The notes: generated by a model not told the origin, from the letters alone. A stretch of DNA of 64,000 nt from Thermodesulfobacteriota bacterium (GCA_965204665.1 OZ242002.1:1433995-1497994); one strand, 5' to 3'; numbered from the stretch's first letter, positions 1,348 to 50,010 are shown. Translations and numbers: made by a program.

Positions 1348-4300
1348 CTCGGTTTTTCAAGAGGACCCCGAGCACATCCACGGACTCCTTCCGCATATCA
1401 AAGTTTTTCATAAGTACTGAGATACTTTTCTGTACGCATTCCTTTTTGTTGTTTAGCGTTGCTGCACTGAGGAGTCTCAAAGTTAGTCTTGAGGCACTAG
1501 CCTCAAGTTTCTGCACACGGTAAAATACCCTTTCACCGTTCTCCTCTAGGCTTACGGTATCGTTACTGCAGAGATAGGTTATGTACTCCCAATCTTCTCC
1601 ATGTTCAGTTCTTACAATCGGCTCCTTGAATATCCGAACCTTTTTCGCAACTTCCATGGTTGTTATGAATTCACCTTCATATTTTCCGTTTTGACGGTTT
1701 CTTGTTATTTCTACATGGTGGATATTTCCGTACCTGAGAACATGTAGGGTTTTGCCTTCCTCGTTCTTGTGGTTCCAGTAGGAGTCTTCCGGAAAATCTT
1801 TCGACACCCAGACCCTTGCGCGACATATTTCGTTTCTCGTTTTCGGATGGATCAATGGCTTTTTCGACAATTGCTTCATTGCGGTTTTTACATCTCCTCC
1901 ACCCTCCCAGACATATCTCTCGACTGCAGATCTGATCACAGGGCAAACAATGTTTCCTTTTTCCTTCTCGGTCATATTCTCAAGCATTTTACGCACCACT
2001 AACCCGTGTTTTCCGCCTTCGCCTTCTCTTATCCCGTAGACCGTCTCCTCATGGAACGCTCCAGTTAATTTTCTGTTGGTAGCATGCGAGACTATGAGAT
2101 TTCCTAGTCGGTTGGAAAGAGTATCTCTCAGTTTTAGAAGCGGCGGGTCGACCTTGATTTTGTGATCGGGAGAAATGTCATCATCATCTGGTTTCTGCAA
2201 CTCGGTAATTTGATGAATGATCTTCTGGTAAAGCCTGCGGGTTGTGAGTGCGATTACAGTTGCGTCAACAGCATGGTGCCTGTGGTCTTCTCTGTTTTTT
2301 TCTCCACTATCCCCGAGCAAATTATTGAGTCCCCACTGTTTCCGTAGCCAGCTTGTCGCGCCACCTTTGGTGAAAGATACGTCACAACCTAAGTTCCTTA
2401 TATATTTTCCTGCTTCTCTTGATATGTAGCGTGCGTCTGTCAACTGATTGCTTATAAATTCATCAATTCCACCAAGGTCTTCTTTTAGTAATCTTTCTTT
2501 TTTTGGTCTGGGTAGTGAATTTGAAATTGACAAAATAGAATCCCATTCTTCAGTTTCTTCAAACGCTTCCCGAGGAGTCCTTGCTCCTTTTTCCCTGTTC
2601 TTTCTTGAAAAACAGATAACTTTGTTCATGTACGAGTCGTCAAGGGACCTCTTATACGGAAGTATATGATCAATCTCCGTTTCATCGGTAAAAAGTGTGG
2701 TTTTAGATATCATTTCTCCGCTGTAAATGCATACTCCCCCGCTTTCTTCCCATAGGCGGTATTTCAGTCTGTCCTGATAACTTATGTTCTTCTTGAGTTT
2801 AAGTTGTTGGTTATTGACCCTGATTATTTCATATTGTTCTCTAGCTCTTTCATTTGATTCTTCGTTCTTTTTGTACCTTGCGAGAGTTTCCTTGTACCTT
2901 TTAGTGTTCATTTCAAGGTCTCGCGCCATTTCTATTCGTACTGCGGATGGTTTACCGTATTTTTTGATAATTGCGTTTATAACATGTCGGAGTTCGTAGA
3001 GGGCCTTTTGAACTATTGGATTCGGTATCCAAGGTGGAGACGGAAGCAGGTCAGAATTTCCTTTTTCAACTTCACTGAACTTGTATCCTGCAATGTCTAC
3101 AGCATCATGATATTTTTTCCCTTCTTGCAGATAATGAAGAATCTTTTTCGTTGCTTTCAAAGAAAGGTTCGAATGTTCTTCCTCTAGTTCCACCACAGCA
3201 AGTCTAGTAGCTTCTTCTTCAGGAAATCTCCAGTGATTTAGGAAACGCTTTTTGAGCCCTTTTTTTGAGTTGTAAGAGATTATATCTTCGACAATCTGGG
3301 ACTGTTTCTCTTCACTGAAAGAATCCCAACTATCTCCGAGAATCTTTCTTATATCGCACGCTGTTGTATTTCCTTTGAGACCTTTTGTATTTCCCGGAAC
3401 CTTCTGAAGGTTAAATTCCGTTGCTTTGGGTAGTTTCAGAGCTTTTCTCACTGACGACCATGAGAGCCGTTTTGTCTTTTCAAGTTCACAAGCAAGATTT
3501 TTTTTCTGTTCGTCAGATAGAGGTATATCTATCTCACCTGTTTCAGGATCATCATAAGAGAGATTATTTATTTGTTGCCAGTAGCGAAATTGCTGAGATT
3601 CAAGGCGGGCATTCCTAGTTCTGCTCAACTTGGGTTCGAATGTACAATGCCCCACTCTATCCGGCTTCAGTTTAAGAGGTCTTTGGAAAAAGATGATGTG
3701 CTCAAGTTCCTCCTTCATCTTCTTATGGTAGATTTCAGGATTGAGTTCCGACTGCTTTTCCCATATCTTTTCGAACTCTTCTTTGTACATTGCCCTGTCC
3801 GTGTGTCGGTCATGTAGCGACCCCCTGTTTCGTTTGCGGGGAAGTCCAGACAGGTACTCTCCGAGAGTTCTAGTACCGACCTCGTCCATTTCCTTCCTGA
3901 GTGTTTTTATGTATCCCTTCAGATTTTTTTCGTCGTTGTCTTTATTGGAAGAGTTGTTTTCTTTTTCAAGAATGTTTTGGGCTTTGATGTCATCCGCCAA
4001 GTCTCCAAATGAGGTCTTGCGGTTGCTTAGAAACCCCCTGCGGGACCCTAGATGAAGAAGCGCTCTGCCAAACTCATGACGAGTCAGTTCCTCGTCCATC
4101 GCTTTTTTTCTTATTGAATAAGGGTCTCCCAACTTATTGAGTTCCTGCTCGGGGGAGGAATTATTCTTCAATGAATCGGGCAGAAATCCTTTGAGGACAA
4201 GGTAGTTTCTCAGGCGATTTTTACGTCTACTGCGACGTTGCACCTGTCTTCTCTGGAGGCGTGATTCTCTGCGTTTTCTATTTTTCGGGGTAGGGGATTT

Positions 4301-4447
4301 ATCTTCAACGGAGCGGATGAATATGCGACTTCCACAGTCGATAAATTTTCTGGGTTCTCCATATTTCTCTTCTATTATGCTCCATCCGATAGAGTTTGTC
4401 CCCATATCAAGTCCTATAGCGTATTCAGATAAATTCGACTTTTTCAT
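1340..4447 (-). CDS. cas9: Cas9 (type II-C, compact 1035 aa)
   Basis: RuvC-I motif IGLDMGTNSIGWSI at the N-terminus; HNH motif IDHILPYKRSLDDSYMNKVICFSRKNREKG; RuvC-III HHAVDATVIAL. Followed by cas1-cas2 with no csn2 or cas4, hence II-C. Confidence 0.95.
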   Translation of the reverse strand: MKKSNLSEYAIGLDMGTNSIGWSIIEEKYGEPRKFIDCGSRIFIRSVEDKSPTPKNRKRRESRLQRRQVQRRSRRKNRLRNYLVLKGFLPDSLKNNSSPEQELNKLGDPYSIRKKAMDEELTRHEFGRALLHLGSRRGFLSNRKTSFGDLADDIKAQNILEKENNSSNKDNDEKNLKGYIKTLRKEMDEVGTRTLGEYLSGLPRKRNRGSLHDRHTDRAMYKEEFEKIWEKQSELNPEIYHKKMKEELEHIIFFQRPLKLKPDRVGHCTFEPKLSRTRNARLESQQFRYWQQINNLSYDDPETGEIDIPLSDEQKKNLACELEKTKRLSWSSVRKALKLPKATEFNLQKVPGNTKGLKGNTTACDIRKILGDSWDSFSEEKQSQIVEDIISYNSKKGLKKRFLNHWRFPEEEATRLAVVELEEEHSNLSLKATKKILHYLQEGKKYHDAVDIAGYKFSEVEKGNSDLLPSPPWIPNPIVQKALYELRHVINAIIKKYGKPSAVRIEMARDLEMNTKRYKETLARYKKNEESNERAREQYEIIRVNNQQLKLKKNISYQDRLKYRLWEESGGVCIYSGEMISKTTLFTDETEIDHILPYKRSLDDSYMNKVICFSRKNREKGARTPREAFEETEEWDSILSISNSLPRPKKERLLKEDLGGIDEFISNQLTDARYISREAGKYIRNLGCDVSFTKGGATSWLRKQWGLNNLLGDSGEKNREDHRHHAVDATVIALTTRRLYQKIIHQITELQKPDDDDISPDHKIKVDPPLLKLRDTLSNRLGNLIVSHATNRKLTGAFHEETVYGIREGEGGKHGLVVRKMLENMTEKEKGNIVCPVIRSAVERYVWEGGGDVKTAMKQLSKKPLIHPKTRNEICRARVWVSKDFPEDSYWNHKNEEGKTLHVLRYGNIHHVEITRNRQNGKYEGEFITTMEVAKKVRIFKEPIVRTEHGEDWEYITYLCSNDTVSLEENGERVFYRVQKLEASASRLTLRLLSAATLNNKKECVQKSISVLMKNFDMRKESVDVLGVLLKNRDG

Positions 4448-4499
4448 CTTTAATTGTAAAAAATTCCTCCTGTTCGCTTGACTTTCAAGCCGTATATTG

Positions 4500-4633
4500 T
4501 AACGTATTAAGCAAGTTACACAACTGACTGAAAACTGCCATGATATTTGCTTTTGCTATTCATAACAAGAAGCGAATGTTTCGCAGGTAATCTCTACGGA
4601 GAACCCAGCCCTCGCACTCGGGGGCTTTTTTTT
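4500..4633 (+). ncRNA. Predicted tracrRNA (anti-repeat 4522-4535, internal hairpin, intrinsic terminator 4608-4633)
   Basis: AACTGACTGAAAAC at 4522-4535 is the perfect reverse complement of the repeat 5' end (34-47). Flanking partial complementarity is consistent with a lower stem, bulge and upper stem. Downstream hairpin GCGAA-TGT-TTCGC, then GCCCTC-GCACTC-GGGGGC followed by T8 on the plus strand. No plus-strand protein gene lies upstream that this terminator could serve. Confidence 0.5.
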
Positions 4634-4655
4634 ATCTGATTTTCGACTGTTGACT

Positions 4656-6092
4656 TTAGTCGGTTTGCAGATTTTTGAGGGATTCGAATTCAAACAACGC
4701 TTTTTTTCTTGCTGTCGAATGATCAACTATCTGAACTGGGTAAGATCCACGACCTGAACCTTTCCACGGTTCATGAGTATACAGGTTCGACACATTCTTG
4801 AGTTCCGGAATCCATCTCCGCACATAATCACCTTCCGGGTCGAATTTCTTTCCTTGGAGAGTCGGATTGAAAATACGAAAAAAGGGAGCGGCGTCCACCC
4901 CGCATCCCGCGACCCACTGCCAACTGACTGAGTTGTTCGCGAGGTCCGCGTCCACCAGAGTTTCGAAGAACCACTCGGCACCCCGCTGCCACGGAATTAA
5001 GAGATGTTTTACCAGGAATGACGCAGCGACCATCCGCACGCGGTTATGCATCCATCCGGTTGTCAGGAGCTGGCGCATTCCCGCGTCCACTATGGGATAA
5101 CCGGTAAGTCCTCGTTGCCAAAGGTCAAGCAACTCTTCGTTATCTTTCCAGGGGAATCGTTCAAATTCTTTCCGAAACGGCTTGTCGGGAAATTCCGGCC
5201 GGTGATAGAGAAGATGATGGGAGAATTCCCGCCAGATCAACTGACGCAAAAAGGAATCACAGTCTTCTTGAGAGCGGTTTTTCAGATTACGGCTTGCCGA
5301 GTGCCAGCAGAGCCTAGGTGAAATCTCTCCGAAATGAAGATGAGGAGAAAGCTTGGAAGTTCCGGAGACATCCGGCCGGTCGCGTTGCGTTTTATAGAGG
5401 GCCCCCGAATTTTCAAGAAACGAATCAATCCGCACAAGGGCTCCCCGTTCTCCGGGCGTCCATAAGTCGAGCCATCCCAGAGCCCGGTCGGGCTTTTGCG
5501 GAAGCAGGTTCCATGCTGAGAGAGAATCACCTCTCAAAGGTTTTTCCGGGCGGGAAATCTCTCTGGGTGCGGGAAGTGGCGAGCGGAGAGGGAGTTTTTT
5601 GAGGCACGCTCTGTAGAAAGGCGTGAAGACCCTGAAGCAGTCGCCTTTTCCGGTCGCTACCGATTCGGGAGGAAAAAGAAGACTGCCGTCGAAAGCGCGG
5701 ACCCCGATTCCAGTATCAGTTAGAACCCGTTCCACTTCCGTTTCTGTCTTTTTCGCGTGAGGTTCCGAAAGCCGGTTGAAATGGACAGCCGCAGCCCCGG
5801 TTTCGCGGGCAATTTCCGCGAGCACATCCGGAGGATTACCGCACCTGAGCAGAAGGCGATTCCCGTAGGACCCGAGAGTCTCATCAATTCCCGCGAGACT
5901 GTGGTGGAGCCACCATCTGCTTGCTCCCCGCGGAGCCCAGGGGTCGGAGTCTCCGTCTTCGAGTATGTAGACCGCTATCACAGGTCTTGATTTTTCTGCG
6001 GCCGCGAAAAGCGCAGGATTATCCGTAACCCTGAGGTCTTTTCGGAACCAGTGAATTACAGGATGTTCTTTTTCCCCTGTATGATTCATCAT
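4656..6092 (-). CDS. phr: Deoxyribodipyrimidine photolyase (class I CPD photolyase/cryptochrome family)
   Basis: 478 aa. N-terminal IHWFRKDLRVTDNPAL and FAD-binding C-terminal WQWVAGCGVDAAPFFRIFNPTLQGKKFDPEGDYVRRWIPEL. Confidence 0.9.
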   Translation of the reverse strand: MMNHTGEKEHPVIHWFRKDLRVTDNPALFAAAEKSRPVIAVYILEDGDSDPWAPRGASRWWLHHSLAGIDETLGSYGNRLLLRCGNPPDVLAEIARETGAAAVHFNRLSEPHAKKTETEVERVLTDTGIGVRAFDGSLLFPPESVATGKGDCFRVFTPFYRACLKKLPLRSPLPAPREISRPEKPLRGDSLSAWNLLPQKPDRALGWLDLWTPGERGALVRIDSFLENSGALYKTQRDRPDVSGTSKLSPHLHFGEISPRLCWHSASRNLKNRSQEDCDSFLRQLIWREFSHHLLYHRPEFPDKPFRKEFERFPWKDNEELLDLWQRGLTGYPIVDAGMRQLLTTGWMHNRVRMVAASFLVKHLLIPWQRGAEWFFETLVDADLANNSVSWQWVAGCGVDAAPFFRIFNPTLQGKKFDPEGDYVRRWIPELKNVSNLYTHEPWKGSGRGSYPVQIVDHSTARKKALFEFESLKNLQTD

Positions 6093-6199
6093 CTGCCTTC
6101 ATTTCTCGGGATTCGGTAAGATTATACCGAAGTAGAACCGGGTGCCGCGTGACCGGCATCCGACATTAATGTGCTATTAAAGAAGGCGAGGTCCGTCCC

Positions 6200-7108
6200 A
6201 TGTCCCGTCCGGATGCAGAGAAACAAGGTTTCAAGTCAGGATTCATTTCCGTGGTCGGAAGACCGAACGTAGGCAAATCCACGCTTGTAAATTCAATTGT
6301 CGGAGAGAAAGTCTCCGCGGTTTCCGATAAGCCCAGCACCACCAGGAACAAGATAGTCGGCGTGAAAACCTTCGAGGATTCACAGCTGATTTTCCTTGAT
6401 ACACCCGGGGTTTACAGGGAAAAAACGAGACTCGGAAAATCCATGGCCCGCGCAGTCAGCAGCGCTCTCGCCGACTCGGACCTGATCATGTTCGTAACGG
6501 ATGTGGAAAAACCGCTCGGTATTGCGGACAAGGGTATACTTGAGATGCTCGCGAAGCCCCCTGTTCTTGTTATAAACAAGATTGACAGGATCAAAAAATC
6601 AAAACTGCTTCCTGTCCTTTCCGCTGCGGACGGATTTACCGGGAAATTCCTTGAACTCGTCCCCGTCAGCGCTCTTGACGGAGACGGCGTTGTGCAGATT
6701 GTGGAACTGCTCAAAAAGTATCTGCCCGAAGGACCAATGTATTTTCCTAGGGAAGTTTTCACCGACCAGCCGGAAGTTTTCTACATAGCGGAGATTGTAA
6801 GGGAGAAGATATTCAATCTCACCCGAAAAGAGATTCCCTACAAAGTGGCGGTTCTGGTCACGGGTTTCAGCGAGGACGCGAAAAAAAACCTGATAAGCGT
6901 GAACGCGGAAATCTATGTTGAGAGAAAGAGCCATAAAAGAATCGTCATAGGAAAGGGCGGAGCGATACTCAAACGGGTGGGCTCGGAGGCGAGAGCCGAG
7001 ATTGAAAGCACTCTGGGTACAAGACTGTTTCTTGATCTTTATGTGAGAGTAAAGAAGAACTGGACAGGAAACGATTTTCTGATAAGAGAGTTCGGCTACG
7101 GGGAGTGA
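6200..7108 (+). CDS. era: GTPase Era
   Basis: G1 motif GRPNVGKSTL, G3 DTPG, NKID G4 motif; C-terminal KH domain. 302 aa. Confidence 0.95.
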   Translation: MSRPDAEKQGFKSGFISVVGRPNVGKSTLVNSIVGEKVSAVSDKPSTTRNKIVGVKTFEDSQLIFLDTPGVYREKTRLGKSMARAVSSALADSDLIMFVTDVEKPLGIADKGILEMLAKPPVLVINKIDRIKKSKLLPVLSAADGFTGKFLELVPVSALDGDGVVQIVELLKKYLPEGPMYFPREVFTDQPEVFYIAEIVREKIFNLTRKEIPYKVAVLVTGFSEDAKKNLISVNAEIYVERKSHKRIVIGKGGAILKRVGSEARAEIESTLGTRLFLDLYVRVKKNWTGNDFLIREFGYGE

Positions 7109-39583: not shown

Positions 39584-40687
39584 CTATTTAAAATGATTCC
39601 AGACAGGTTTTCCAAGTATTTTCACCTTGTCGGATGATATTTCATCGCCGGTTTTTCTCCTAACCGCAAGTTCGTCCGTAAAATCCCGAAACTCCTTTCT
39701 TACATAGCCCAGCGCGATATTCTTTCCGCATAGAGGAGAATAGGCGGATGATGTTATTCTCCCCACTTTTTTCCCATCGACGGAAAGTTCATCACCGGGA
39801 AACATATCAGTACCTTCCTTCGCCGCAAAGCAGGCAAGATGCCAGTTGACTCTTCCTCTCCACCTTATCCTCGCTATTACTTCCTGTCCGACGTAACATC
39901 CTTTTTCAAAGTCGAGAGCGTTCCATATTCCCGCTTCAATCGGTATGGTCGAAGAATCCATGTCTTTTCCGTAAATGGGAATTCCAGCCTCTATTCTCAA
40001 AGTTTCCAGAGAATCCAGGCCGAAAAGATAAGCGCAGTCTCTATCATCTAAAGTGAGTAGATCCCACACCGCAAGAGAATTGTGGTTTTCAAGCAGCACG
40101 TCAAAACCGGTTTCACCCGTTCTGTTTATTTTGAAAACCGTGAGTCGGCGGTCGTCCGAGCATGTGTGGTCGTACTCGTCCATTTCTACGGTTTTTACAC
40201 CTAGCCTGCTTTCGAGGAATTCTGAAGAATCGGGACCACACACATGCAGTACGCAGTATTTCTCCGTCACGTCAGACAGTTCAATTTTGTATGAAAGCTT
40301 GAATCTGGTAAGTACCCTCACAACTTCACTGCCTGCGCAAGGTTCTATGTCCATGTAGACAGAGTGCTCGCGTACGAAGATTCTCATATCTGAAATCATC
40401 TTTCCTTTGGGAGTCAGAAGAGTCGCGTAGGCGCCTGTTCCGGCGACTTTTTCCTTCACATCATTTGTGAGCATTCCTTGCAGGAATTTTATGCGGTCTC
40501 TGCCGGAAACAACAATTTTTGACCTGTTTGAGATATCGACTACTGCTACGTTTTTCCTTGCGTTCCGAGATTCTGCGAACGGGTCGCCGTAATTTTGCGG
40601 AAGATGAAATTCCGAACTTCCAGAAAACCTTGCGCCACGCGCTTTCTGTTTTTCGTAAAGAGGTGTTCTCTTCGAAGGTTCGGTCAT
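39584..40687 (-). CDS. Aminomethyltransferase-family folate-binding protein (GcvT/YgfZ-like)
   Basis: 367 aa with GcvT-like N-terminal fold (RSKIVVSGRDRIKFLQGMLTNDV) and a C-terminal barrel. Confidence 0.7.
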   Translation of the reverse strand: MTEPSKRTPLYEKQKARGARFSGSSEFHLPQNYGDPFAESRNARKNVAVVDISNRSKIVVSGRDRIKFLQGMLTNDVKEKVAGTGAYATLLTPKGKMISDMRIFVREHSVYMDIEPCAGSEVVRVLTRFKLSYKIELSDVTEKYCVLHVCGPDSSEFLESRLGVKTVEMDEYDHTCSDDRRLTVFKINRTGETGFDVLLENHNSLAVWDLLTLDDRDCAYLFGLDSLETLRIEAGIPIYGKDMDSSTIPIEAGIWNALDFEKGCYVGQEVIARIRWRGRVNWHLACFAAKEGTDMFPGDELSVDGKKVGRITSSAYSPLCGKNIALGYVRKEFRDFTDELAVRRKTGDEISSDKVKILGKPVWNHFK

Positions 40688-40778
40688 ATTTGTAATTTCC
40701 TTTACGAGTTTTCTCCGCTTGAAAAACTACTTGACAGCAGTAATATACACACCCTTAAAAAATTGCGGAGTGCTGAGA

Positions 40779-41723
40779 GTGAGTGAACTAGAAAAAAGTT
40801 ATAAGGTGGTGATCATGGGGTCAGGCCCCGCGGGACTTACGGCAGCTATTTATGCCGCGCGGGCTAACCTTGAGCCGCTTGTTCTTGAAGGACCTGAAGC
40901 CGGCGGTCAGCTTACCACGACTACTGATGTGGAGAATTTTCCGGGTTTTCCGCGAGGCGTTATGGGTCCGGAACTTATGGACCTTCTTAGGGAGCAAGCG
41001 CAGAGGTTCGGGGCGCGATGCATGCAGAAGTCAGTTACATCTGTTGATTTTTCCCGAAGACCTTTTCACGTGTTCGTAGACGAAGAAGAGTCGCGGTCAT
41101 CTGCGTTTATAGTTTCTTCAGGCGCTACGGCGAAAATGCTCGGACTTCCAACGGAGCGGGAACTTTTGGGTTATGGGGTTTCCACCTGCGCCACCTGCGA
41201 CGGTTTTTTCTTCAAAGACAAGGAACTCGTAGTGGTCGGAGGCGGAGACAGCGCCATGGAGGAATCCATATTTCTTACAAAATTCGCTTCTCGAGTTACG
41301 GTCGTTCACAGAAGAGACACGCTCAAGGCGTCTGTGATAATGCAACAACGCGCCCGTGACAATGAGAAAATAGATTTCATATGGAACGCGGTCGTTGAGC
41401 AAGTACTGGGCTTGAGAGAAACTGGAGTGACGGGGGTGATGTTGAGGGATGTCAACACAGGCGAGAGTTATGTGAGGCAGTGTCAGGGAATGTTTGTCGC
41501 CATAGGGCATACTCCCAACAGTGAGATATTCAAAGGACAACTCCAAATGGATGAAAACGGGTACCTTATAACCAAAAGCGGTACTTCTGAAACCAGCGTT
41601 GCGGGGGTATTTGCGGCAGGAGATATCCAGGACACAAGATATAAGCAGGCGATAACTGCCGCGGGCAGCGGTTGCATGGCGGCTATCGACGCTGAGAGAT
41701 TTCTTGAGGAAAACGGACTTTAG
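40779..41723 (+). CDS. trxB: Thioredoxin-disulfide reductase
   Basis: FAD site GSGPAGLTAAIYAARA, redox CATC, NADPH site GGGDSAMEE. Start set at the in-frame GTG giving MSELEKSYKVVIMGSG. Confidence 0.9.
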   Translation: MSELEKSYKVVIMGSGPAGLTAAIYAARANLEPLVLEGPEAGGQLTTTTDVENFPGFPRGVMGPELMDLLREQAQRFGARCMQKSVTSVDFSRRPFHVFVDEEESRSSAFIVSSGATAKMLGLPTERELLGYGVSTCATCDGFFFKDKELVVVGGGDSAMEESIFLTKFASRVTVVHRRDTLKASVIMQQRARDNEKIDFIWNAVVEQVLGLRETGVTGVMLRDVNTGESYVRQCQGMFVAIGHTPNSEIFKGQLQMDENGYLITKSGTSETSVAGVFAAGDIQDTRYKQAITAAGSGCMAAIDAERFLEENGL

Positions 41724-41790
41724 TTACTTTGTGAATTACAGTTTTGGACAAAGTATTTTTATTCGGTTATAGAATTTGCCGGCTTTTCCC

Positions 41791-41865
41791 GGGCGGTTAG
41801 CTCAGCGGGAGAGCATCTGCCTTACAAGCAGAGGGTCACAGGTTCAAATCCTGTACCGCCCACCA
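41791..41865 (+). tRNA. tRNA-Val (anticodon TAC), CCA encoded
   Basis: Cloverleaf readable by eye: acceptor GGGCGGT/ACCGCCC, anticodon loop CTTACAA, T-loop GGTTCAAATCC. Confidence 0.85.
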
Positions 41866-41873
41866 TTTTAAAC

Positions 41874-41948
41874 GGGGCCGTAGTTCAGTTTGGTCAGAAC
41901 GCTGGCCTGTCAAGCCAGAGGTCGCGGGTTCAAATCCCGTCGGTCCCG
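41874..41948 (+). tRNA. tRNA-Asp (anticodon GTC)
   Basis: Acceptor GGGGCCG/CGGTCCC (one G-U), anticodon loop CTGTCAA, T-loop GGTTCAAATCC. 8 nt after tRNA-Val. Confidence 0.85.
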
Positions 41949-42314
41949 CACCCCGATTTATTTTACAGCGCCCGTCCCATGGCCCTCTGTCGGTTTTTGT
42001 ACGCACCTTGGTCTATCCCCCCCCTCTCATCTCAATTTGCAAAGTCTAAGCGAGACAGGGCTGTGTTTCTCGTAACTCGCCGAGCAGGCGAACAAACAAC
42101 TGTCGCAGTGAACGGACCGGAGAAAAGAGTGTCAGTATGCAGCGTACGGTTGTTTTGATGCGTCAAGCAGACTTGAGCAACCGAGCGCGAATTGTTTCAT
42201 AACATGTCTTGGACCCGACTCGGCGTCCTCGTCCGATGTATCTGCGTATTTGCTTGAAATTATATAAAATAGTATCAGAAATGAAGATTTATATTCAAAT
42301 CTGAGCATGGAGAG

Positions 42315-45300
42315 TTGACGGTGACGAAGCACTCGTTCTCTGGTCAAGAAAATGAATTGCATCTGCGATGTCTCTCTGTTGACCTTGAGGTGGACAGCAG
42401 GAGCGGAAAAATTCGTGCCGTCGGTGCCGTGCGTTCAGATACCGGACAATCAGTCAGTTTTCGAAACGGGGACCTGCGGAAGTTGCTTGAGGAACTGGAT
42501 GATTTTGCGGACGGCGCATCTCTTCTTGTCGGCCATAACCTGATAAAATTCGACCGTCCTAAACTGGATGCCGTAAAATCCGATCTCAATCTTTTGAAAC
42601 TGCCGTCAATAGACACTCTCTGGCTGAGCCCTCTTGCCTTTCCTCGCAACCCTTATCATAAGCTGGTGAAGCACTACAAGAAAGGAGACTTGGTGCGCGA
42701 GCAGATAAACAAACCTGAACTGGATGCGAAGATTGCTCTAACTCTTCTCCATGACGAATGGAACTCCCTGCGGAGAACAGATAAAGACCTGACCCTTATT
42801 TGGCACCGGTTGGCCACATCCGATAGCGGGATGTCGGGTTTTAATATGTTCTTCTCTTCTCTGAGGAATTCATCTCCTCCTTCAGATGTCGAAACCCGAA
42901 AGACGCTAAGCAGATGGCTTGAGGGCAAAGTCTGTCAAACTCATGCCGGCGACATTACAAACGTGGCCAGACGAAATCCGTGGCCGTTTGCTTATGCTTT
43001 GGCGTGGTTTTCAGTGGCGGGAGGTAACTCCGTAATGCCGCCCTGGGTCCGTCATCAGTTTCCCGAAGCGGGGCGTATAGTCCGTAAGTTACGTGACACC
43101 GCCTGCGTCAATGACGGATGTATCTGGTGTCGTGAGAACCACGATTCCCGCAAGGAACTTTCCCGCTGGTTCGGCTATTCCGATTTTCGACCGGGGCAGA
43201 AATCGGTAGTTGATACTGCTATGGTCGGAAACCATGTTCTGGGAATTATGCCCACAGGCGCCGGCAAATCGCTTTGCTACCAGGTTCCCGCTCTTTCGCG
43301 CTACCACAAAACGGGGGCATTGACCGTTGTAATCTCACCGCTGGTCGCTCTTATGGCGGACCAAGTGGCAGGTCTTGAGTCGAGAGGGATCGGGTCATGC
43401 GTTACCGTAAACGGACTTTTATCCATGCCTGAGCGTGTTACGGCTCTGGAGAGGGTGAGGCTTGGAGACGCGAGCATACTTATAATTTCACCGGAGGGAC
43501 TCCGCAACATTTCACTGATACGAGCACTGGACCAACGGGAGATAGGCGCTTGGGTGCTTGACGAAGCTCATTGTCTCTCAAGATGGGGTCATGATTTCCG
43601 CCCTGATTACCGATATGTGGGAAGGTTTATACGCAGCAGGTCGGAGAACGGTTATGTGGCGCCCGTAATGTGTCTTACCGCAACAGCGAAACCCGAAGTT
43701 GTAGATGAAATCAAGTCTTATTTCAGAAAGCATCTGGGAGTGGATTTAATTGTTTTTAACTGCGGAGCGCACCGTCCGAATCTTATTTTTCAGGTTGTGC
43801 TGACGAGCGAAGCGAAAAAGTTTTCCCAAATATACCGGATAATTGAAGCCAATTTGCCGAACGGAACGTCGGGAGGCGCCATAGTTTATTGCGCGACGCG
43901 CGCGAATACGGAAGAAATGGCAGTTTTTCTTAAAGGAAAAGGTCTTGAATCTGACTTTTTTCATGCCGGCCTTCCTCCGCAGAAAAAACTGAATGTGCAG
44001 AAAAGTTTCATCAACGGCGACCTGCAGGTTATTTCTGCCACCAATGCATTCGGCATGGGAATTGACAAAGAGGATGTGCGCGTCGTGATCCATGCGGATA
44101 TACCGGGGTCGCTTGAGAATTATCTGCAGGAGGCTGGAAGAGCGGGAAGAGATCAAAGACCCGCCCACTGCGTGCTTCTCTATACGCAGGAAGATGTCGA
44201 AAGACAATTCGGATTCTCGGCGCGTTCACGGCTGACCCGAGAAGAGATCCAGAGCATTTTCAGATTCCTGCGCAGACTGGACAAAAAGAAACGAACGGGC
44301 GGAGAGATCGTGGTCACCTCAGGTGAGATTCTGTTTGAAGACAGGGACAATGAGATTAGAAACAACAGAAGAGACTCCGTGACCGATAATACCGGTGATA
44401 CCAAGGTTCGTACGGCTATTTCTTGGCTTGAAGAATCAGATATGCTCACCCGGGAAAAAAACCTGGTTAGTGTTTTCCCGTCTTTTCTTTATGTGAACTC
44501 TTTAGACGAGGCGAAGAGAAGGCTTCAGAGTAAAGGAATAAATTCCGACCGTCTTGACGGTCTTCTATCCATAGTCAGGGAAATAATGAATGCGGATAAA
44601 GATCAAGGGATTTCCACTGACGAACTTATGCACATATCGGGGCTCAGTCCGCAGAGAGTTCTCTCCGCCCTGAGTGATCTGGAGAGTTCCGACATAGTCA
44701 GTAACGACATTACGATGACCGCCTTCGTGCATTCCGGGGTTAAGCATTCATCTCTTCGCCGCTTCCGGGAGGCGCAGGATCTGGAATGTTCACTGATCAA
44801 CTACATGCGCGATATGAAGAATGATGTCAAGTTGGTTGAACAGGGGTTTACTCTGTCTCTGTCCGCTGCGGTGCAGGCACTGCGGGAACAGATGAAGGAT
44901 GAGAATCTTTTCCCTCAACGATTACTTAGCATACTGCGCAGCATATCCTACGACGGCCGTGGAGAGATGGACAACTCGGGGAGTCTGGGAGTGCGAAACC
45001 TGAACGGCAGGTCAGTTCGTCTGACGCTTTTCCGGGAATGGTCTGATTTGGAAAAAATTGCGGAACTCAGGCGCGGGGCGGCGGAAGCAGTGCTTCGCCA
45101 CCTGCTGAGCCGCGTACCTAAAGGTACACACGGAGTTGACCTCAAAGTTGATACGACTTTCGGAAAACTGTCAAGGGAAATCGCTTCTGACATAGGATTA
45201 AGAAAGGGGAGCCGAGATCTGCAGGAATTACGGAAAAAATTACAGGACAGAGCTCTTATGTGGTTACACGAACAGAGAGTCATACGTCTTCACAGAGGAC

Positions 45301-47480
45301 TCACGGTGTTTCGCCCTGCTATGACGGTCCGTCTTAAAAGAGAAAAGCAGATGTTTACGAAAGAGGACTTTGAACCGCTCGCCGAGCATTACAGCGGACA
45401 GATCCTGCAGATACATATAATGGATGAGTATTCGCGCAGAGGTATCAAGGCCATCTCCGATGCGTTGGCGATGGTGGATGAATATTTCAGTGTTGAAGAG
45501 GAGAAGTTCGTTAGACGATGGTTGCAGGAAAAGTTTTATGAATCCATGATGCAGAACAGGGGAAAACGGAAGAATATCTTTATGCAGACCACTCCGGAAT
45601 CGTGGCGCAGGATTGTGGAAGATCTTGGAAATCCCGACCAGAGGCGAATTGTTGAGGATAATCGGGAGCGGACAAATGTGCTTGTGCTCGCAGGCCCCGG
45701 TTCCGGTAAGACGAGGGTATTAGTTCATCGCATTGCCTATCTTCTGCGCATCAGGCGGGAGAATCCGAGCAGTATCATTGCTCTTGCGTACAATCGTCAC
45801 GCAGCTGTGGAGATTCGCCGTCGTCTCAAGGAACTTGTGGGTGACGACTCCTGCGGGGTAATGGTGCTTACGTGTCACTCCTTGGCCATGCGTCTGGTCG
45901 GGTTCAATTTCTCCTATACAGCTTCAAAGCAGGTTGAGGAAAAGGAGTTTTTCATCAAGGTGCTGCGGGATGCGTCGGCTCTGCTCAAAGGGCAGGGAGT
46001 TGCGCCGGAAGAGTCGGATGAACATCGAGAACGTCTGCTGGCCGGTTTCAGATGGATTCTGGTTGATGAATATCAGGATATAGGTCCTGATGAATATGAA
46101 CTTATCTCGGCGCTGGCTGGAAGGACGCTCGGTGAAGAGGAAAGCAAACTTACGTTGTTCGCCGTAGGCGATGATGATCAGAACATCTACTCTTTTAACG
46201 GTACTTCAGTTGAGTTCATCCGCCGTTTCGAAAAAGATTATAAATCCAGACCCGCCTTTTTGACCGACAATTACCGTTCCACCCGTCATATTGTAGAAGC
46301 ATCAAATGCGATGATTAATCCGGCACGGAACCGCATGAAGGTTCACAATCCCATCCGAGTTAATAAGGCGCGTATGAAAGACCCTCGAGGCGGCGAATGG
46401 CGGGGACTGGACCCCGTAGCGCAGGGAAGGGTTCAGATTCTTGATGCGGGTACTGATCCGGCATCTCAAGCGTGGTCTGCAATGATGGAACTCAAGCGAC
46501 TTTACGAGCTCTCGCCTGATTGGGATTGGTCCAGATGCGCGGTGATCGCCCGTAAATGGGAACATTTAGACCCTGTAAGTTCTTTTTGCCGAATCCACAA
46601 GATTCCCGCACAGATGGCGAACGAAAAACCTCCATTCTGGCAATTGCGCGAAACCGGAAAATTTCTCAATTGGCTCGGTGAAAAAGAGACGGAACTTGTC
46701 AGCGGCGCGGACCTTGACAGGTGGTTGCGCAGTCAAAAATCCAATTGCTGGAATGATTTGCTGTTGCAGGCTGTCGGGGAGTATTGTCTGGAGACTGACG
46801 GTGCCGAAACGCCTGTTGAACATGTCGTTGAATGGCTTGCCGAGTGGGGCTTTGAGATACGACGACGCCAGCACGGGATTTTGCTTACAACCGCGCACGG
46901 AAGCAAGGGACTTGAATTTGATCACGTGTCGGTGCTGGGCGGCGATTGGAATGATTCAGACGAGGAACGCAGATTGTACTATGTCGCGATGACCCGGGTT
47001 AAAAAGACCCTGTTGCTGCTGCGTCTCCCCAAATCCAACAGGCTGCAGAATACGTTGTTTGACGATTCATCCGTTCTCACCCGCCGGTTATCGACAGGGC
47101 CGTCCGAGGAATTGAAAAAGCTCAGGACCTGTTTCAGAAAACTTGCTCTCGGTGATGTGTTTTTGAGTTTTGCCGGATATAGAAATGCCCGGGACCCCCT
47201 GCATCGCGTTATTGAGGCGCTTTCGCCCGGTGACCCTCTTGATGTGCGGCATGCGGGAAGCGGTCGGCTGGAACTGGTGGATCGTTCTTCGGGAGTGGTG
47301 GTTGGACAACTGGCAAAAGCGTACAGACCTCCGTCCGGCATGCGTTGTGTTTCCGCAAACGTGTTTGCTGTGGTGAACCGCAAGCGCGAGTTTTCAGAAC
47401 CCCAATATCAAGACGGCATGAAGTGTGACCAGTGGGAAGTGGTGCTTCCGGAACTCAGGTTTGAACCTGATGTCGGTTAA
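42315..47480 (+). CDS. Giant 1721-aa fusion: DEDDh 3'-5' exonuclease + RecQ-like SF2 helicase + ~480-aa uncharacterised linker + UvrD-like SF1 helicase
   Basis: Exo motifs LSVDLEVDS / HNLIKFDRP. RecQ motifs FRPGQKSVV, MPTGAGKSLCYQ, DEAHCLSRWGHDFRPDY, LTATA, QEAGRAGRD. UvrD motifs LAGPGSGKTRVL, ILVDEYQDI, GDDDQNIYSFNG, TAHGSKGLEFDHV, YVAMTRVKKTL. A probable GTG start at 42321 has the RBS GGAGAG. Confidence 0.8.
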   Translation: MTVTKHSFSGQENELHLRCLSVDLEVDSRSGKIRAVGAVRSDTGQSVSFRNGDLRKLLEELDDFADGASLLVGHNLIKFDRPKLDAVKSDLNLLKLPSIDTLWLSPLAFPRNPYHKLVKHYKKGDLVREQINKPELDAKIALTLLHDEWNSLRRTDKDLTLIWHRLATSDSGMSGFNMFFSSLRNSSPPSDVETRKTLSRWLEGKVCQTHAGDITNVARRNPWPFAYALAWFSVAGGNSVMPPWVRHQFPEAGRIVRKLRDTACVNDGCIWCRENHDSRKELSRWFGYSDFRPGQKSVVDTAMVGNHVLGIMPTGAGKSLCYQVPALSRYHKTGALTVVISPLVALMADQVAGLESRGIGSCVTVNGLLSMPERVTALERVRLGDASILIISPEGLRNISLIRALDQREIGAWVLDEAHCLSRWGHDFRPDYRYVGRFIRSRSENGYVAPVMCLTATAKPEVVDEIKSYFRKHLGVDLIVFNCGAHRPNLIFQVVLTSEAKKFSQIYRIIEANLPNGTSGGAIVYCATRANTEEMAVFLKGKGLESDFFHAGLPPQKKLNVQKSFINGDLQVISATNAFGMGIDKEDVRVVIHADIPGSLENYLQEAGRAGRDQRPAHCVLLYTQEDVERQFGFSARSRLTREEIQSIFRFLRRLDKKKRTGGEIVVTSGEILFEDRDNEIRNNRRDSVTDNTGDTKVRTAISWLEESDMLTREKNLVSVFPSFLYVNSLDEAKRRLQSKGINSDRLDGLLSIVREIMNADKDQGISTDELMHISGLSPQRVLSALSDLESSDIVSNDITMTAFVHSGVKHSSLRRFREAQDLECSLINYMRDMKNDVKLVEQGFTLSLSAAVQALREQMKDENLFPQRLLSILRSISYDGRGEMDNSGSLGVRNLNGRSVRLTLFREWSDLEKIAELRRGAAEAVLRHLLSRVPKGTHGVDLKVDTTFGKLSREIASDIGLRKGSRDLQELRKKLQDRALMWLHEQRVIRLHRGLTVFRPAMTVRLKREKQMFTKEDFEPLAEHYSGQILQIHIMDEYSRRGIKAISDALAMVDEYFSVEEEKFVRRWLQEKFYESMMQNRGKRKNIFMQTTPESWRRIVEDLGNPDQRRIVEDNRERTNVLVLAGPGSGKTRVLVHRIAYLLRIRRENPSSIIALAYNRHAAVEIRRRLKELVGDDSCGVMVLTCHSLAMRLVGFNFSYTASKQVEEKEFFIKVLRDASALLKGQGVAPEESDEHRERLLAGFRWILVDEYQDIGPDEYELISALAGRTLGEEESKLTLFAVGDDDQNIYSFNGTSVEFIRRFEKDYKSRPAFLTDNYRSTRHIVEASNAMINPARNRMKVHNPIRVNKARMKDPRGGEWRGLDPVAQGRVQILDAGTDPASQAWSAMMELKRLYELSPDWDWSRCAVIARKWEHLDPVSSFCRIHKIPAQMANEKPPFWQLRETGKFLNWLGEKETELVSGADLDRWLRSQKSNCWNDLLLQAVGEYCLETDGAETPVEHVVEWLAEWGFEIRRRQHGILLTTAHGSKGLEFDHVSVLGGDWNDSDEERRLYYVAMTRVKKTLLLLRLPKSNRLQNTLFDDSSVLTRRLSTGPSEELKKLRTCFRKLALGDVFLSFAGYRNARDPLHRVIEALSPGDPLDVRHAGSGRLELVDRSSGVVVGQLAKAYRPPSGMRCVSANVFAVVNRKREFSEPQYQDGMKCDQWEVVLPELRFEPDVG

Positions 47481-47520
47481 AATACCACTAAGGTTCGCAT
47501 CACTCTGGTTTCTTTTTCCG

Positions 47521-47613
47521 GAGTAATTGCGGGATAAGTCCTTGACCGTAGTGAGTCTCTGAATAATATTAATAGTGATAAAGGATATTTCGGGAGAAAT
47601 TCTGTTTCTTTTC
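47521..47613 (+). repeat. Direct repeat copy 1 (~83% identical to 48261-48353); a diverged duplicate of the kefB promoter/5' coding end
   Basis: By-eye alignment: 93 nt, ~16 mismatches. Encodes a pseudo-start MIKDISGEILFLFAVA, resembling the kefB start MKDILGEILLLFVVAV. Confidence 0.6.
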
Positions 47614-47696
47614 GCGGTTGCGGAACGCCCGTTAAACTTCAAAGTGCAGCACTCGGGACTGCCGGACTTGCTGTTGCGCCCGCTCTGGAACCGGCA

Positions 47697-48120
47697 GGAA
47701 AAAGGAGATATTCTGCTACGATCGGACTGTTCCGGGGAGATATCACGACGCTTGAGGTCGATGCCGTCGTCAACGCCGCCAACGAGAGGCGCTCATCACC
47801 GCCGGCTACCGACTGCCGGCCCGCCATGTCATCCACACGGTCGGGCCCGTCCGGCGCGGTGTGGGTACTGAAGAAGACACGCTGCCGGCCGCCTGCTACC
47901 GCGATTGCTTTGCGTTCGCGCGGAAGTACGGTTTGGGTTCCATAGCTTTTCCCGCCATCTCCACCGGCGTTTACGGCTTCCCGCCGGACCGTGCGGCCGG
48001 CATTGCCGTCGCCGGCGCCCAGGCCCACGGCACCGGCTTCACACGCATCGTCTTCGTCTGCTTCGACGAAACGACCGAGGCACTGTACCGCGAAGAGTTG
48101 GAGACCCTCCGAACCTTCGG
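47697..48120 (+). pseudogene. Macro-domain (ADP-ribose binding/hydrolase, YmdB/DarG-like) remnant with an internal deletion and frameshift
   Basis: GDITTLEVDAVVNAANER, then in another frame GYRLPARHVIHTVGPV...SIAFPAISTGVYGFP...IVFVCFDE. About 35 aa of the Gly-rich loop region are missing. ~68% GC. Confidence 0.55.
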
Positions 48121-48260
48121 CCGCAGCTGGAGCAATGCGGTCTTGAGGGGGGGGCATCGGCTTCGAGCCGGCCCCGGACGCGCGGGGATGGTCCGGTGCG
48201 ATGGTACGGGCAGAAACATTCAGTTGTCGTGATGGAAGTTTAACGGGCGGAACGGTTGAG

Positions 48261-48353
48261 GGATAAGCCCTTGATCGGATGGAGCCCCTGAATAATATTG
48301 ATAGCTATGAAGGATATTTTGGGAGAAATTCTGCTTCTTTTCGTGGTTGCGGT
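48261..48353 (+). repeat. Direct repeat copy 2 (the functional kefB 5' region)
   Basis: See copy 1. Contains the kefB start codon at 48298. Confidence 0.6.
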
Positions 48354-50010
48354 TTTCATGATCGTTCTGTTCCGCCGATTAAAGCTGCCGCCTATTCTTG
48401 GATATATGTTTGCGGGCATACTGTTCGGCCCTCATGCGCTCGGCGTTTTTGAGGACAGAGAGACCGTTCATATACTCGGGGAAATAGGAATTGCCTTCAT
48501 GCTGTTCGTGATAGGGCTTGAATTCTCCCTTACTCGTTTCTGGCACATGCGGCGAATCCTTTTGGGTCTCGGAGGTGTGCAGGTTTTCGTGGGTACGGTT
48601 TTCGGCGGTCTCATAGGTTGGCATATGGGAATCGGTTGGCCGGCAGTTCTCATAGTGGGCGGAGCGCTCGCGCTTTCTTCCACGGCTATTGTTGTAAAAC
48701 AGCTTACGGAACAGGCGGAACTTCACAGCCCGCACGGGCGGTTTTCTCTCGGGATACTTCTGTTTCAGGATGTGGCCGCCGTCATTTTTCTTGCAATGAT
48801 TCCCAGTTTGTCAGTGCAGGGATTCTCGGGTTCCGGTCAGGAACTGTTCTACTCTCTGATTGAAGGAACGCTCGCTTTCGTTGTTCTTATCGCCGTAGGA
48901 CATTGGTTGCTTGAGCCGCTTTTTCGTGAGGTTTCCGCCGCAGATTCCAAGGAACTTTTTACGCTGACTGTTCTGCTGGTATCTCTTTTTGCCGCTTGGT
49001 TTACTTATCTCATGGGTCTTTCCCTTGCGCTGGGATCTTTCCTTGCCGGAATGATGCTGAGCGAAACTAGATATCGTCATCAGATAGAAGAAGAGCTCAG
49101 ACCCTTTCGAGACATTCTTCTCGGTCTTTTCTTCATCGTAGTGGGTATGCAGATCAATCTCGGTGCGTTTTCAGATGTGTGGCTGTGGGTGATTGTTGTG
49201 TTTGTCGGGCTTTTGCTGGGTAAGGGTCTCCTTATATATCTGCTTGTACTCTTGACCGGGACTGACAGAGTAACCGCGGTGCGCACGAGTCTTGTCTTGT
49301 CTCAAGGCGGTGAATTTGGATTTGCTCTCATAACATTGGCGGTGAACAGAGGTCTGCTTTCCAATTCCGATAGTCAGGCGATACTGATTGCCGTGGGACT
49401 TTCGATGCTGATAGCTCCTGTTCTTATACGTTACAGCGGCATTATTGCCAATCGTTTCTCCCCTACCCCTAAAGAAGTGACGCAGGAAGAAAAGGAGATT
49501 TCCGACATCGTTGCCGCAGTCGAGGAAATCACATCCAAGCCTCATGTGGTTATCTGCGGCTATGGAAGAGTGGGGCGCGTGATCGCGCATTTTCTGCGTC
49601 TTCAGGATATAAACTTTATTGCTCTTGACAGGGATAAGGAACAGGTCAAGCTGGCGTTGGAAGACGGAGAGAATGTACTCTGCGCGGATGTAAATCGCGC
49701 GGAGGTTCTTTCCGCTATATCACTTGAAAATTCGCTTGCCCTCGTGATCAGTTTTAACAACGCGGAGAGAGCTGCAAATATAATCCGGTACGTACGTGAG
49801 CGTTACGAGTCTCTTCCGATCCTGGTCAGGGCCGACAACGCGGATGACATGAAATCCTTGCTTTCCATAGGGGCCAGCGAAGTGGTCCCGGAAGTCATGG
49901 AGTTAGGGTCTTTGGTGTCGAGGCAGCTTCTTCTCTCTCTAGGACTATCTGAAGACGAGGTTTCGGAACGAATAAGTAAATTCAAGGAAGACCATTACGG
50001 ATTGCCCTGA
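48298..50010 (+). CDS. kefB: CPA2-family K+/H+ antiporter with C-terminal RCK/TrkA-N domain (KefB/KefC-like)
   Basis: ~12 TM Na+/H+ exchanger domain, then a Rossmann motif ICGYGRVGRVIAHFL. 570 aa. Confidence 0.85.
   Translation: MIAMKDILGEILLLFVVAVFMIVLFRRLKLPPILGYMFAGILFGPHALGVFEDRETVHILGEIGIAFMLFVIGLEFSLTRFWHMRRILLGLGGVQVFVGTVFGGLIGWHMGIGWPAVLIVGGALALSSTAIVVKQLTEQAELHSPHGRFSLGILLFQDVAAVIFLAMIPSLSVQGFSGSGQELFYSLIEGTLAFVVLIAVGHWLLEPLFREVSAADSKELFTLTVLLVSLFAAWFTYLMGLSLALGSFLAGMMLSETRYRHQIEEELRPFRDILLGLFFIVVGMQINLGAFSDVWLWVIVVFVGLLLGKGLLIYLLVLLTGTDRVTAVRTSLVLSQGGEFGFALITLAVNRGLLSNSDSQAILIAVGLSMLIAPVLIRYSGIIANRFSPTPKEVTQEEKEISDIVAAVEEITSKPHVVICGYGRVGRVIAHFLRLQDINFIALDRDKEQVKLALEDGENVLCADVNRAEVLSAISLENSLALVISFNNAERAANIIRYVRERYESLPILVRADNADDMKSLLSIGASEVVPEVMELGSLVSRQLLLSLGLSEDEVSERISKFKEDHYGLP

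Follow-up and report, generated by a model that had tools for sequence, protein, structure and literature searches.

We analyzed a 64,000-nucleotide (nt) stretch of one DNA strand from a Thermodesulfobacteriota bacterium (GCA_965204665.1 OZ242002.1:1433995-1497994), hereafter called the window, and focused on a plus-strand gene within it that encodes an exonuclease-RecQ-UvrD fusion. The analysis revealed that this fusion carries five modules on one chain: an N-terminal exonuclease module ending in a CCCH knuckle, a RecQ-family superfamily 2 (SF2) helicase core, a middle region, a UvrD-type superfamily 1A (SF1A) helicase core, and a C-terminal beta domain. The parts are of known kinds; an SF2 RecQ motor, an SF1 UvrD motor, and an exonuclease on the same chain are not described in the literature and databases that we searched. 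We tentatively propose that the fusion might represent a new class of bacterial DNA machine, in which 3'-5' motors of the RecQ and UvrD types, a DEDD exonuclease of variant kind, and an end-binding HIRAN-like domain would bring together functions that in eukaryotes are divided between WRN and FBH1/HLTF. Such a machine could reverse or dismantle 3'-ended branched DNA and, depending on the host, serve fork rescue or one-gene immunity.

One uninterrupted gene encodes the fusion

An uninterrupted open reading frame (ORF) of 1721 codons runs from TTG 42315 to 47480 on the plus strand, as an earlier note made from the sequence had reported. A Shine-Dalgarno-like GGAGAG lies 6 nt ahead of GTG 42321, and the database protein P0001, which is 100% identical to the fusion, is 1719 amino acids (aa) long. 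Because of this spacing and this length, the true start is most likely GTG 42321 rather than TTG 42315. Residues are numbered below according to P0001 unless stated otherwise (ORF numbering minus 2). The three-enzyme single chain described in the earlier note proved to be real and is conserved across full-length homologues. Its order of exonuclease, RecQ core, middle region, and UvrD core was also retained, but the C-terminal domain with a predicted HIRAN-like fold and the CCCH knuckle had been overlooked.

A homologue search covering about 5.8 billion proteins identified more than 7,600 database proteins that match the fusion. Among the best 120 homologues (57-100% identity, at least 90% coverage), 119 were 1674-1768 aa in length and one was 1588 aa. 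A single uninterrupted gene was present on complete PGAP-annotated plasmids of Thiothrix, Cereibacter, Rhizobium, Microvirga, Sulfitobacter, and Allochromatium, as well as in a Lautropia genome. An alternative explanation, which the earlier note had allowed for, is that two or three adjacent genes were fused through an assembly or frameshift error. This is exceedingly improbable given the number of matching proteins and their uniform length, because thousands of independent assemblies, including complete plasmids and chromosomes, contain this architecture of about 1700 aa without interruption, and split versions occur only as evident decay products.

The family carries no annotation beyond "RecQ family helicase". 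The architecture was undescribed in the open-access literature searched (absence there is no proof), PADLOC 2.0, NCBIfam, and the PDB; no full-length PADLOC model, no structure beyond the two helicase cores, and no literature description was found. This agrees with the earlier remark that no described protein of this kind could be recognized.

Both helicase cores retain their catalytic motifs

We examined the first motor by using Pfam, NCBIfam, and PDB searches and counted residue conservation in 182 full-length members. Pfam placed DEAD at residues 292-465 and Helicase_C at residues 507-613, and the NCBIfam model TIGR00614 (recQ_fam) scored 317.9 bits against a cut-off of 219.8, which assigns the core to the RecQ family. 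PDB RecQ chains matched residues 279-640 (E=7e-72), and the PDB cores of RecQ, RECQ5, BLM, RECQ1, and WRN matched with E values of about 1e-72 to 1e-49. The residues K316, D414, E415, H417, R607, and R610 were invariant in 182/182 members.

The second motor yielded 131.3 bits with Pfam UvrD-helicase (cut-off 23), 81.9 with AAA_19, and 53.5 with UvrD_C, which together define an SF1A core. Its PDB matches included UvrD (E=2.5e-31), PcrA (E=6e-28), UvrD1, and Rep, and K1130, D1249, E1250, Q1252, Q1287, and R1559 were invariant in all 182 members. The Walker and arginine-finger residues of both motors were likewise invariant throughout. The complete RecQ-type SF2 core and the complete UvrD/PcrA-type SF1 helicase with motifs I-VI, both proposed in the earlier note, were thus borne out, and conservation in the alignment indicates that every catalytic motif of each ATPase core is intact.

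Neither motor could be assigned to a housekeeping orthologue. For the RecQ part, the housekeeping equivalogs scored far below their cut-offs (TIGR01389, 352.6 against 640.2; NF008279, 282 against 1015), and Pfam detected no RecQ_Zn_bind, RQC, or HRDC module in the fusion; orthology to housekeeping bacterial RecQ was therefore rejected. Orthology of the second motor to UvrD, PcrA, Rep, HelD, or helicase IV was also rejected, the equivalog models reaching 51-161 bits against cut-offs of 419-1168.

The N-terminal module is a predicted variant DEDD exonuclease

Residues 1-278 had no Pfam match even at E=10. An AlphaFold model of the N-terminal module (predicted local distance difference test [pLDDT] 81.7, predicted template-modeling score [pTM] 0.81, 43 sequences) showed an RNase H-like fold of the DEDD exonuclease type. 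When a profile of 29 members was compared with the PDB, the best E values were 0.06-0.7, below significance; the top matches were all DEDD exonucleases (DinG, TREX1-like, and T7 polymerase exonuclease).

D21 and E23 were kept in 174/182 members, and 7 of the remaining sequences had alignment gaps there. D78, D135, H72, and D98 were kept in every member and N73 in 181 of the 182. The four predicted metal-binding carboxylates of ExoI, ExoII, and ExoIII are therefore conserved. At the general-base position, five residues before D135, Asn was found in 175/182 members and His or Tyr in none, and a profile alignment placed this Asn exactly on the catalytic His of Staphylococcus aureus DinG. Of the DnaQ/WRN-like DEDDh exonuclease proposed earlier, the DEDD fold and the carboxylates were retained, whereas the DEDDh His was not. 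The Asn-for-His exonuclease offers a natural test case for DEDD catalysis.

A loop between ExoII and ExoIII (N110-P-Y112-H113-x-L-V-K117) was invariant and had low pLDDT in the model. Its Y112, H113, and K117 may supply the general base lost through the Asn-for-His change. The longer form of the loop, N-P-Y-H-x-L-V-K-x-Y, occupies window positions 42648-42680 (P0001 residues 110-120); its "NPYH" superficially resembles the HIRAN "NPYD" motif, which is probably a coincidence.

In the CCCH knuckle that ends the module, C262, C267, and C270 were present in 182/182 members and H274 in 170/182, and the knuckle presumably binds zinc. An exhaustive search with the first 278 residues as the query returned 1,168 clusters at 50% identity, 181 of them at E<=1e-30. 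Members long enough for the whole architecture group at about 1700-1900 aa, and the shorter ones have the look of fragments cut off at contig ends; the N-terminal domain is therefore specific to the exonuclease-RecQ-UvrD architecture.

The middle region and the C-terminal beta domain

The stretch between the motors, which the earlier note had estimated at about 480 residues and could not assign, measures about 460 aa and still resists assignment beyond weak winged-helix matches. These matches (HTH_24, DprA_WH, MarR_2, and Crp-type) were inconsistent and fell around residues 740-820, and a PDB profile search of the region returned just designed helical repeat proteins and weak helix-turn-helix (HTH) matches. 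No catalytic motif was recognized, although helical motifs are conserved. The weak winged-helix signals suggest that the region may be a scaffold between the two motors with at least one winged-helix-like segment.

The C-terminal domain had no Pfam or PDB sequence match and contains a near-invariant W-E-V motif near the C-terminus. AlphaFold modeled it as a beta-rich fold with a pLDDT of 90.7. A Foldseek search of the PDB with this model had Rad5 as its top match (E=0.1, below significance), and when the HLTF HIRAN sequence served as the query, 3k2y was the best non-HLTF match in the PDB. Pfam HIRAN was found in the C-terminal domain of none of the 29 members scanned, and hhalign against HLTF HIRAN gave E=0.067 over 22 columns, which is not significant, with the 3'-OH-holding NPYD loop absent. 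The model therefore points to a domain that is HIRAN-like in fold only. Membership of the sequence-defined HIRAN family was rejected, given the lack of a Pfam HIRAN match and of an NPYD-type loop. The coordinates of all modules are listed in Table 1.

Table 1. Coordinates of the fusion gene, its modules, and the adjacent tRNA genes in the window
Feature	Position	Strand	Details
Exonuclease-RecQ-UvrD fusion coding sequence, stop included	42321..47480	+	1719 aa (1721 aa from TTG 42315); P0001 100% identical
Shine-Dalgarno-like GGAGAG	42309..42314	+	Sequence reading
DEDD-fold (DnaQ-like) 3'-5' exonuclease domain, predicted	42363..42815	+	D21, E23, H72-N73, D78, D98, D135; N130 replaces canonical His
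Helical extension ending in CCCH knuckle	42816..43154	+	Helices 155-273 in model; C262, C267, C270, H274 = nt 43104-43142
RecQ-family SF2 helicase core	43149..44234	+	Motif 0 FRPGQ, Walker A GKS, DEAH, motif VI QEAGRAGRD; ORF residues 279-640
Family-specific middle region, ~460 aa	44235..45614	+	ORF residues 641-1100; winged-helix-like segment ~740-820
UvrD/PcrA/Rep-type SF1A helicase core	45615..47024	+	Walker A GSGKT, DEYQD, GDDDQ, NYRS, KGLEF, VAMTRA; ORF residues 1101-1570
C-terminal beta-rich domain, HIRAN-like fold in model	47127..47468	+	Modeled segment 47010-47477; ORF residues ~1605-1718, ~130 aa
tRNA-Val(tac) + tRNA-Asp(gtc)	41791..41949	+	41791-41865 and 41874-41949; adjacent context only

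Proposed mechanism

Machines that combine helicase and nuclease play a central part in DNA repair as well as in bacterial immunity. Helicases of the RecQ and UvrD/PcrA/Rep families move along single-stranded DNA in the 3'-5' direction, DEDD nucleases remove nucleotides starting at the 3' end, and in HLTF and Rad5 the HIRAN domain binds a free 3' end. On the basis of these family properties, the fusion would be a stand-alone single-chain nuclease-helicase in which both motors and the exonuclease work 3'-5', polarities that we infer from the families, and its C-terminal domain may hold the DNA end in the manner of HIRAN domains. Because 3'-5' motors, a 3'-end nuclease, and a HIRAN-like domain that may hold 3' ends would all converge on such structures, the substrate is probably DNA that is branched or carries a 3' end; candidates are D-loops, 3'-tailed duplexes, and stalled or reversed forks.

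Motors that share one polarity could not, unlike those of RecBCD, run side by side along the two strands of a duplex, and they would for this reason most likely act on different arms or strands of a branched molecule. In one version of the mechanism, both nascent strands would be peeled off a stalled fork; in another, a D-loop would be dismantled. In either version, trimming the 3' end thus released would fall to the exonuclease. An account of the cooperation between two same-polarity motors would bear on fork reversal and D-loop disruption.

Inheritance, spread, and decay of the gene

We favor a role in accessory genome maintenance, namely the processing of forks or recombination intermediates, and hold this reading with about even confidence. 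It is preferred over one-gene immunity because of the syntenic vertical inheritance of the gene, the ordinary neighborhoods in an unbiased sample of loci, and the lack of a discrimination module.

The first of these was examined in two relatives. In the relative with a 2.39-Mb genome, a 79%-identical orthologue has glmS/glmU, not tRNAs, upstream, and the genes downstream of it (antiporter, HAD, CbiX-like, M20, M17, and aminotransferase) are those of the window; the relative with a 2.44-Mb genome carries a 61%-identical orthologue between the same M20 and M17 genes. The syntenic housekeeping proteins of the two relatives showed 80-94% and 62-79% identity, respectively. The conserved neighborhood and the divergence paralleling that of housekeeping neighbors argue that the fusion gene is a long-term resident, vertically inherited among housekeeping genes in this small-genome lineage.

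Beyond this lineage, the named members belong to Alpha-, Beta-, and Gammaproteobacteria, Chloroflexota, and Dadabacteria. Named Caldilineaceae members share 58-59% identity with the protein of the present, Dadabacteria-like genome, and such identity between phyla indicates horizontal spread under strong constraint. A distant clade of about 1600 aa and about 30% identity has the same exonuclease-RecQ-UvrD order; its match stops near residue 1560, without the C-terminal domain. It was found in Cyanobacteria, Bacteroidota, and Campylobacterota (including a Bacteroides finegoldii plasmid, Nostoc, and Aliarcobacter plasmids). No DNA-level match to window positions 40000-50000 was found in Escherichia coli complete genomes, and a genome-contig scan with the single protein returned just one unrelated UvrD-like match of 26% identity. 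A look-up of contigs encoding P0001 returned none.

Near-full-length close copies (40-55% identity) were present in about 17 plasmid or megaplasmid records, and with the distant clade counted in, 25 plasmid records reach a query coverage of 80% or more. Some of the carrier plasmids are conjugative or mobilizable; most are large, non-mobilizable, and chromid-like. Several copies are in decay. On plasmid pTA1_3 of Rhizobium ruizarguesonis TA1 (locus 1471-6583), the gene is frameshifted into ORFs of 814 and 916 aa. Both assemblies of this strain match in two pieces, sister Rhizobium strains carry an intact gene, and other Rhizobium strains a truncated one. The Nostoc copies, which belong to the distant clade, are split or interrupted by IS1634. 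Because of these frameshifted, split, and insertion sequence (IS)-interrupted copies, the gene is dispensable in some hosts. A "3'-5' exonuclease" annotated in Nostoc beside split RecQ and UvrD genes is most likely the UvrD_C fragment of a decayed gene and was set aside as uninformative on the N-terminal domain.

Among 50,697 phage records, no full-length copy was found, and just RecQ-core matches over about 21% of the query were returned. Four IMG/VR contigs carry the N-terminal domain of the family, and the three with enough sequence (L014, L016, and L017) hold full-length copies. The neighbors scanned on two IMG/VR contigs encode methylases, regulators, a beta-lactamase, and a helicase, and none is a phage structural gene. 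In L014, a gene for a 1064-aa ResIII helicase follows the family gene.

One metagenome protein, P0177, has an extra C-terminal Peptidase_S24 domain (LexA/UmuD-like) at residues 1773-1869 (26.7 bits against a cut-off of 23.3). This extension was unique to P0177 among 318 sequences, and the S24 peptidase was therefore dropped as a family trait. In that variant, the domain is a weak hint of coupling to RecA or DNA-damage signaling.

Neighborhoods at other loci

We clustered 458 flanking ORFs from 31 loci and found no family in more than 3 loci; the recurrent flanking families were lineage-specific housekeeping genes, HipA, and ABC ATPases. Because no flanking family exceeds 3/31 loci, the fusion gene is stand-alone, without a conserved partner. 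Twenty metagenomic loci served as an unbiased sample of neighborhoods, and a pooled Pfam and PADLOC scan of their 150 flanking ORFs identified mostly transporters, methyltransferases, and dehydrogenases, with a scattered few matches to defense models.

Many of the annotated loci were located in variable regions. One locus carries an MmeI-like restriction gene with PIN, HipA, and PhD-PIN modules, and another carries a type I-D CRISPR system and a WYL-domain gene. Further sets of neighbors were RES toxins, BrnT, and H-NS; HipA; an integrase, an HNH nuclease, and type I restriction; and IS66 and VapC. Locus L011 holds PemK, HicAB, an integrase, and IS elements, the integrase and transposases being within 10 kb. 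Further annotated loci have mundane neighbors.

Directly upstream of a 65% homologue in locus L002 (2463-9875), four co-directional genes encode a DUF6361 protein (412 aa), a 602-aa protein, a 1067-aa DEAD/Helicase_C protein, and a 361-aa protein. This cluster, which neighbors an MmeI-like restriction-methylase gene, may constitute a defense system in its own right.

Weighing genome maintenance against defense and mobile-element functions

A possible alternative, which we consider the less probable account, is that the fusion is a one-gene defense directed at phages or plasmids. An invader would be sensed through its 3' ends or replication intermediates, which both motors would unwind and the exonuclease would degrade, in parallel with other nuclease-helicase immunity proteins. 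The patchy occurrence across phyla at unusually high identity, the megaplasmid copies, and the strain-level loss in Rhizobium and Nostoc would suit this explanation, as would the family-bearing IMG/VR contigs and neighbors such as restriction-modification, PIN/HipA/PhD, RES, BrnT, HicAB, PemK, type I-D CRISPR, and transposase genes. The best PADLOC domain matches of the fusion, DpdF, PsyrT, and GajB, point the same way, and a portion of Hachiman HamB is similar to the C-terminal domain. However, no full-length PADLOC model matches, and neither a self/non-self module nor a partner gene was found. The stable syntenic inheritance in the window lineage differs from the fast turnover typical of defense genes, the flanks in the unbiased sample are mostly metabolic, and the neighbors scanned on the two "viral" contigs are not phage structural genes. 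Toxin-antitoxin neighbors are, moreover, common on megaplasmids anyway. If the fusion is defensive, it would add a compact one-gene system to those known.

A function for mobile elements appears unlikely. In this explanation, the gene would be cargo of a plasmid or integrative element, processing the element's own replication or transfer intermediates or shielding it from host nucleases. The plasmid records with close copies, their increase once the distant clade is included, and the conjugative or mobilizable carriers are consistent with it, as are ParB-methylase-type genes adjoining the copy on IMG/VR contig L016 and the integrase and transposases near the copy in L011. Yet most carriers are of the large, non-mobilizable, chromid-like kind, no recurrent link to relaxase, replication, or transfer genes was observed, chromosomal copies lie in housekeeping contexts, and no phage genome has a full-length copy.

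The lack of full-length phage copies is also counted in favor of the genome-maintenance role, and so is the S24 domain of P0177 as a hint of coupling to DNA damage. Several points weigh on the other side. With Asn substituted for the His or Tyr that acts as general base, the exonuclease may be weak, use another base, or only bind DNA ends. The polarity of the helicases and the direction of the exonuclease are those expected from family membership alone. The patchy distribution, the 58-59% cross-phylum identity, the megaplasmids, and the pseudogenized copies would fit an accessory or conflict gene equally well, and so do the toxin-antitoxin, restriction, and CRISPR neighbors at several annotated loci. 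In PADLOC, the RecQ part scores best on the conflict helicases DpdF and PsyrT.

Comparison with known systems

The eukaryotic counterpart brought to mind by an exonuclease joined to RecQ is WRN, which shares with the fusion an N-terminal DEDD-superfamily 3'-5' exonuclease and a RecQ-family core; the WRN core matched residues 269-630 (E=3e-50). The WRN exonuclease is of the RNase D or DEDDy type, and WRN carries RQC and HRDC. By contrast, the exonuclease of the fusion is DnaQ/DinG-like with Asn at the general-base position, and the fusion has no detected RQC or HRDC and adds a second, SF1 motor and a predicted HIRAN-like domain. DinG of Gram-positive bacteria (S. aureus and Bacillus subtilis) is the closest structural match of the exonuclease module. 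It differs in its XPD-like SF2 motor, its retained DEDDh His, its single motor, and the lack of a HIRAN-like domain.

RecBCD, AddAB, and AdnAB resemble the fusion in combining two motors and a nuclease in one DNA-end machine, and AddA/RecB models matched the UvrD part weakly. They are multi-subunit enzymes with RecB-family PD-(D/E)xK nucleases, and the RecBCD motors have opposite polarity. The fusion, by comparison, is a single chain that joins a RecQ SF2 motor and a UvrD SF1A motor, both of 3'-5' families, to a DEDD exonuclease, and no equivalog reaches its cut-off.

Among defense proteins, DpdF (381.7 bits) and PsyrT (301.7 bits) were the best PADLOC matches to the RecQ part, at residues ~275-650. 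DpdF, from the Dpd DNA-modification system, and PsyrT/RqlH, from a toxin-antitoxin system, have, as the fusion does, RecQ-like cores without canonical RecQ C-terminal modules. The match is nevertheless confined to the helicase core, the NCBIfam DpdF equivalog scored 200 against a cut-off of 550, and no dpd cluster or PsyrA-type partner lies near the fusion. Gabija GajB and Hachiman HamB, defense helicases that survey DNA for ends or damage, gave partial, domain-level matches; each works with a separate nuclease partner (GajA and HamA), which is absent beside the fusion. Membership of Dpd, PsyrTA, Gabija, Hachiman, or other PADLOC 2.0 systems was rejected, since the matches are at the domain level only and no partner recurs in the 31 loci.

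HLTF and Rad5 join a HIRAN domain to a DNA motor, as the fusion may do through its HIRAN-like fold. They are eukaryotic SNF2 double-strand translocases, unlike the fusion, in which the HIRAN signature loop and detectable sequence similarity are absent. FBH1, a eukaryotic UvrD-like fork-reversal helicase, provides a conceptual parallel for fork remodeling by a UvrD-family motor that could act on nascent strands; the functional likeness is presumptive. The family is large, rigid in architecture, mechanistically puzzling, and experimentally tractable.

The locus in the window

The gap between tRNA-Asp and TTG 42315 is 365 nt, close to the distance of about 370 bp from the tRNA-Val/tRNA-Asp pair given in the earlier note. 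The upstream neighbors encode MreC, MreB, GcvT, and a TrxB-like reductase, and the downstream neighbors a Kef-type Na+/H+ exchanger, an HAD hydrolase, an M20 peptidase, and an M17 aminopeptidase. The G+C content (GC) of the fusion gene is 0.507, compared with 0.479 in its flanks.

A GC-rich fragment of about 630 bp (47624-48255) follows the gene and is bracketed by a 97-nt direct repeat of 85% identity (47527-47623 and 48256-48352). The second copy of the repeat coincides with the start of the Kef-type antiporter gene, covering its promoter region and first codons. The fragment contains a frame-broken macro-domain remnant (Pfam Macro positions 74-118 of 118, E=5e-11), and the 79%-identity relative does not have this insert. 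The fragment reflects a small insertion or duplication that happened separately, and it does not mark the edge of an island. The foreign GC-rich fragment noticed earlier is thus real, but it is a decayed macro-domain remnant within a duplication of the antiporter start.

From the tRNA pair and this fragment, the earlier note had proposed insertion at a tRNA island, with the fusion gene as recent cargo. The short distance to the tRNA pair and the foreign-looking sequence after the gene speak for such an island, which we nonetheless consider very unlikely. No direct repeat of the tRNA 3' end (att-like) was found downstream of the gene, and no integrase was found among ten large neighboring ORFs scanned, small window ORFs having been only partly scanned. 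The compositional difference between the gene and its flanks is small, and the GC-rich fragment arose separately. The relatives keep the gene and its downstream synteny with co-divergence, with glmS instead of tRNAs upstream. Recurrence of homologues beside tRNA genes was checked, as the earlier note had suggested, and only 3/31 loci had any tRNA in their flanks. There is no evidence for a functional or insertional link of the tRNA pair to the fusion gene, and the window locus is not to be counted as a tRNA island nor, on present evidence, as a defense locus.

Elsewhere in the window, positions 1-22000 form a GC mosaic, with values of 0.41 at 1-4 kb, 0.49-0.58 at 5-11 kb, 0.43 at 12-13 kb, 0.41 at 17-21 kb, and 0.57 at 21-22 kb. 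This pattern suggests foreign or differently constrained blocks.

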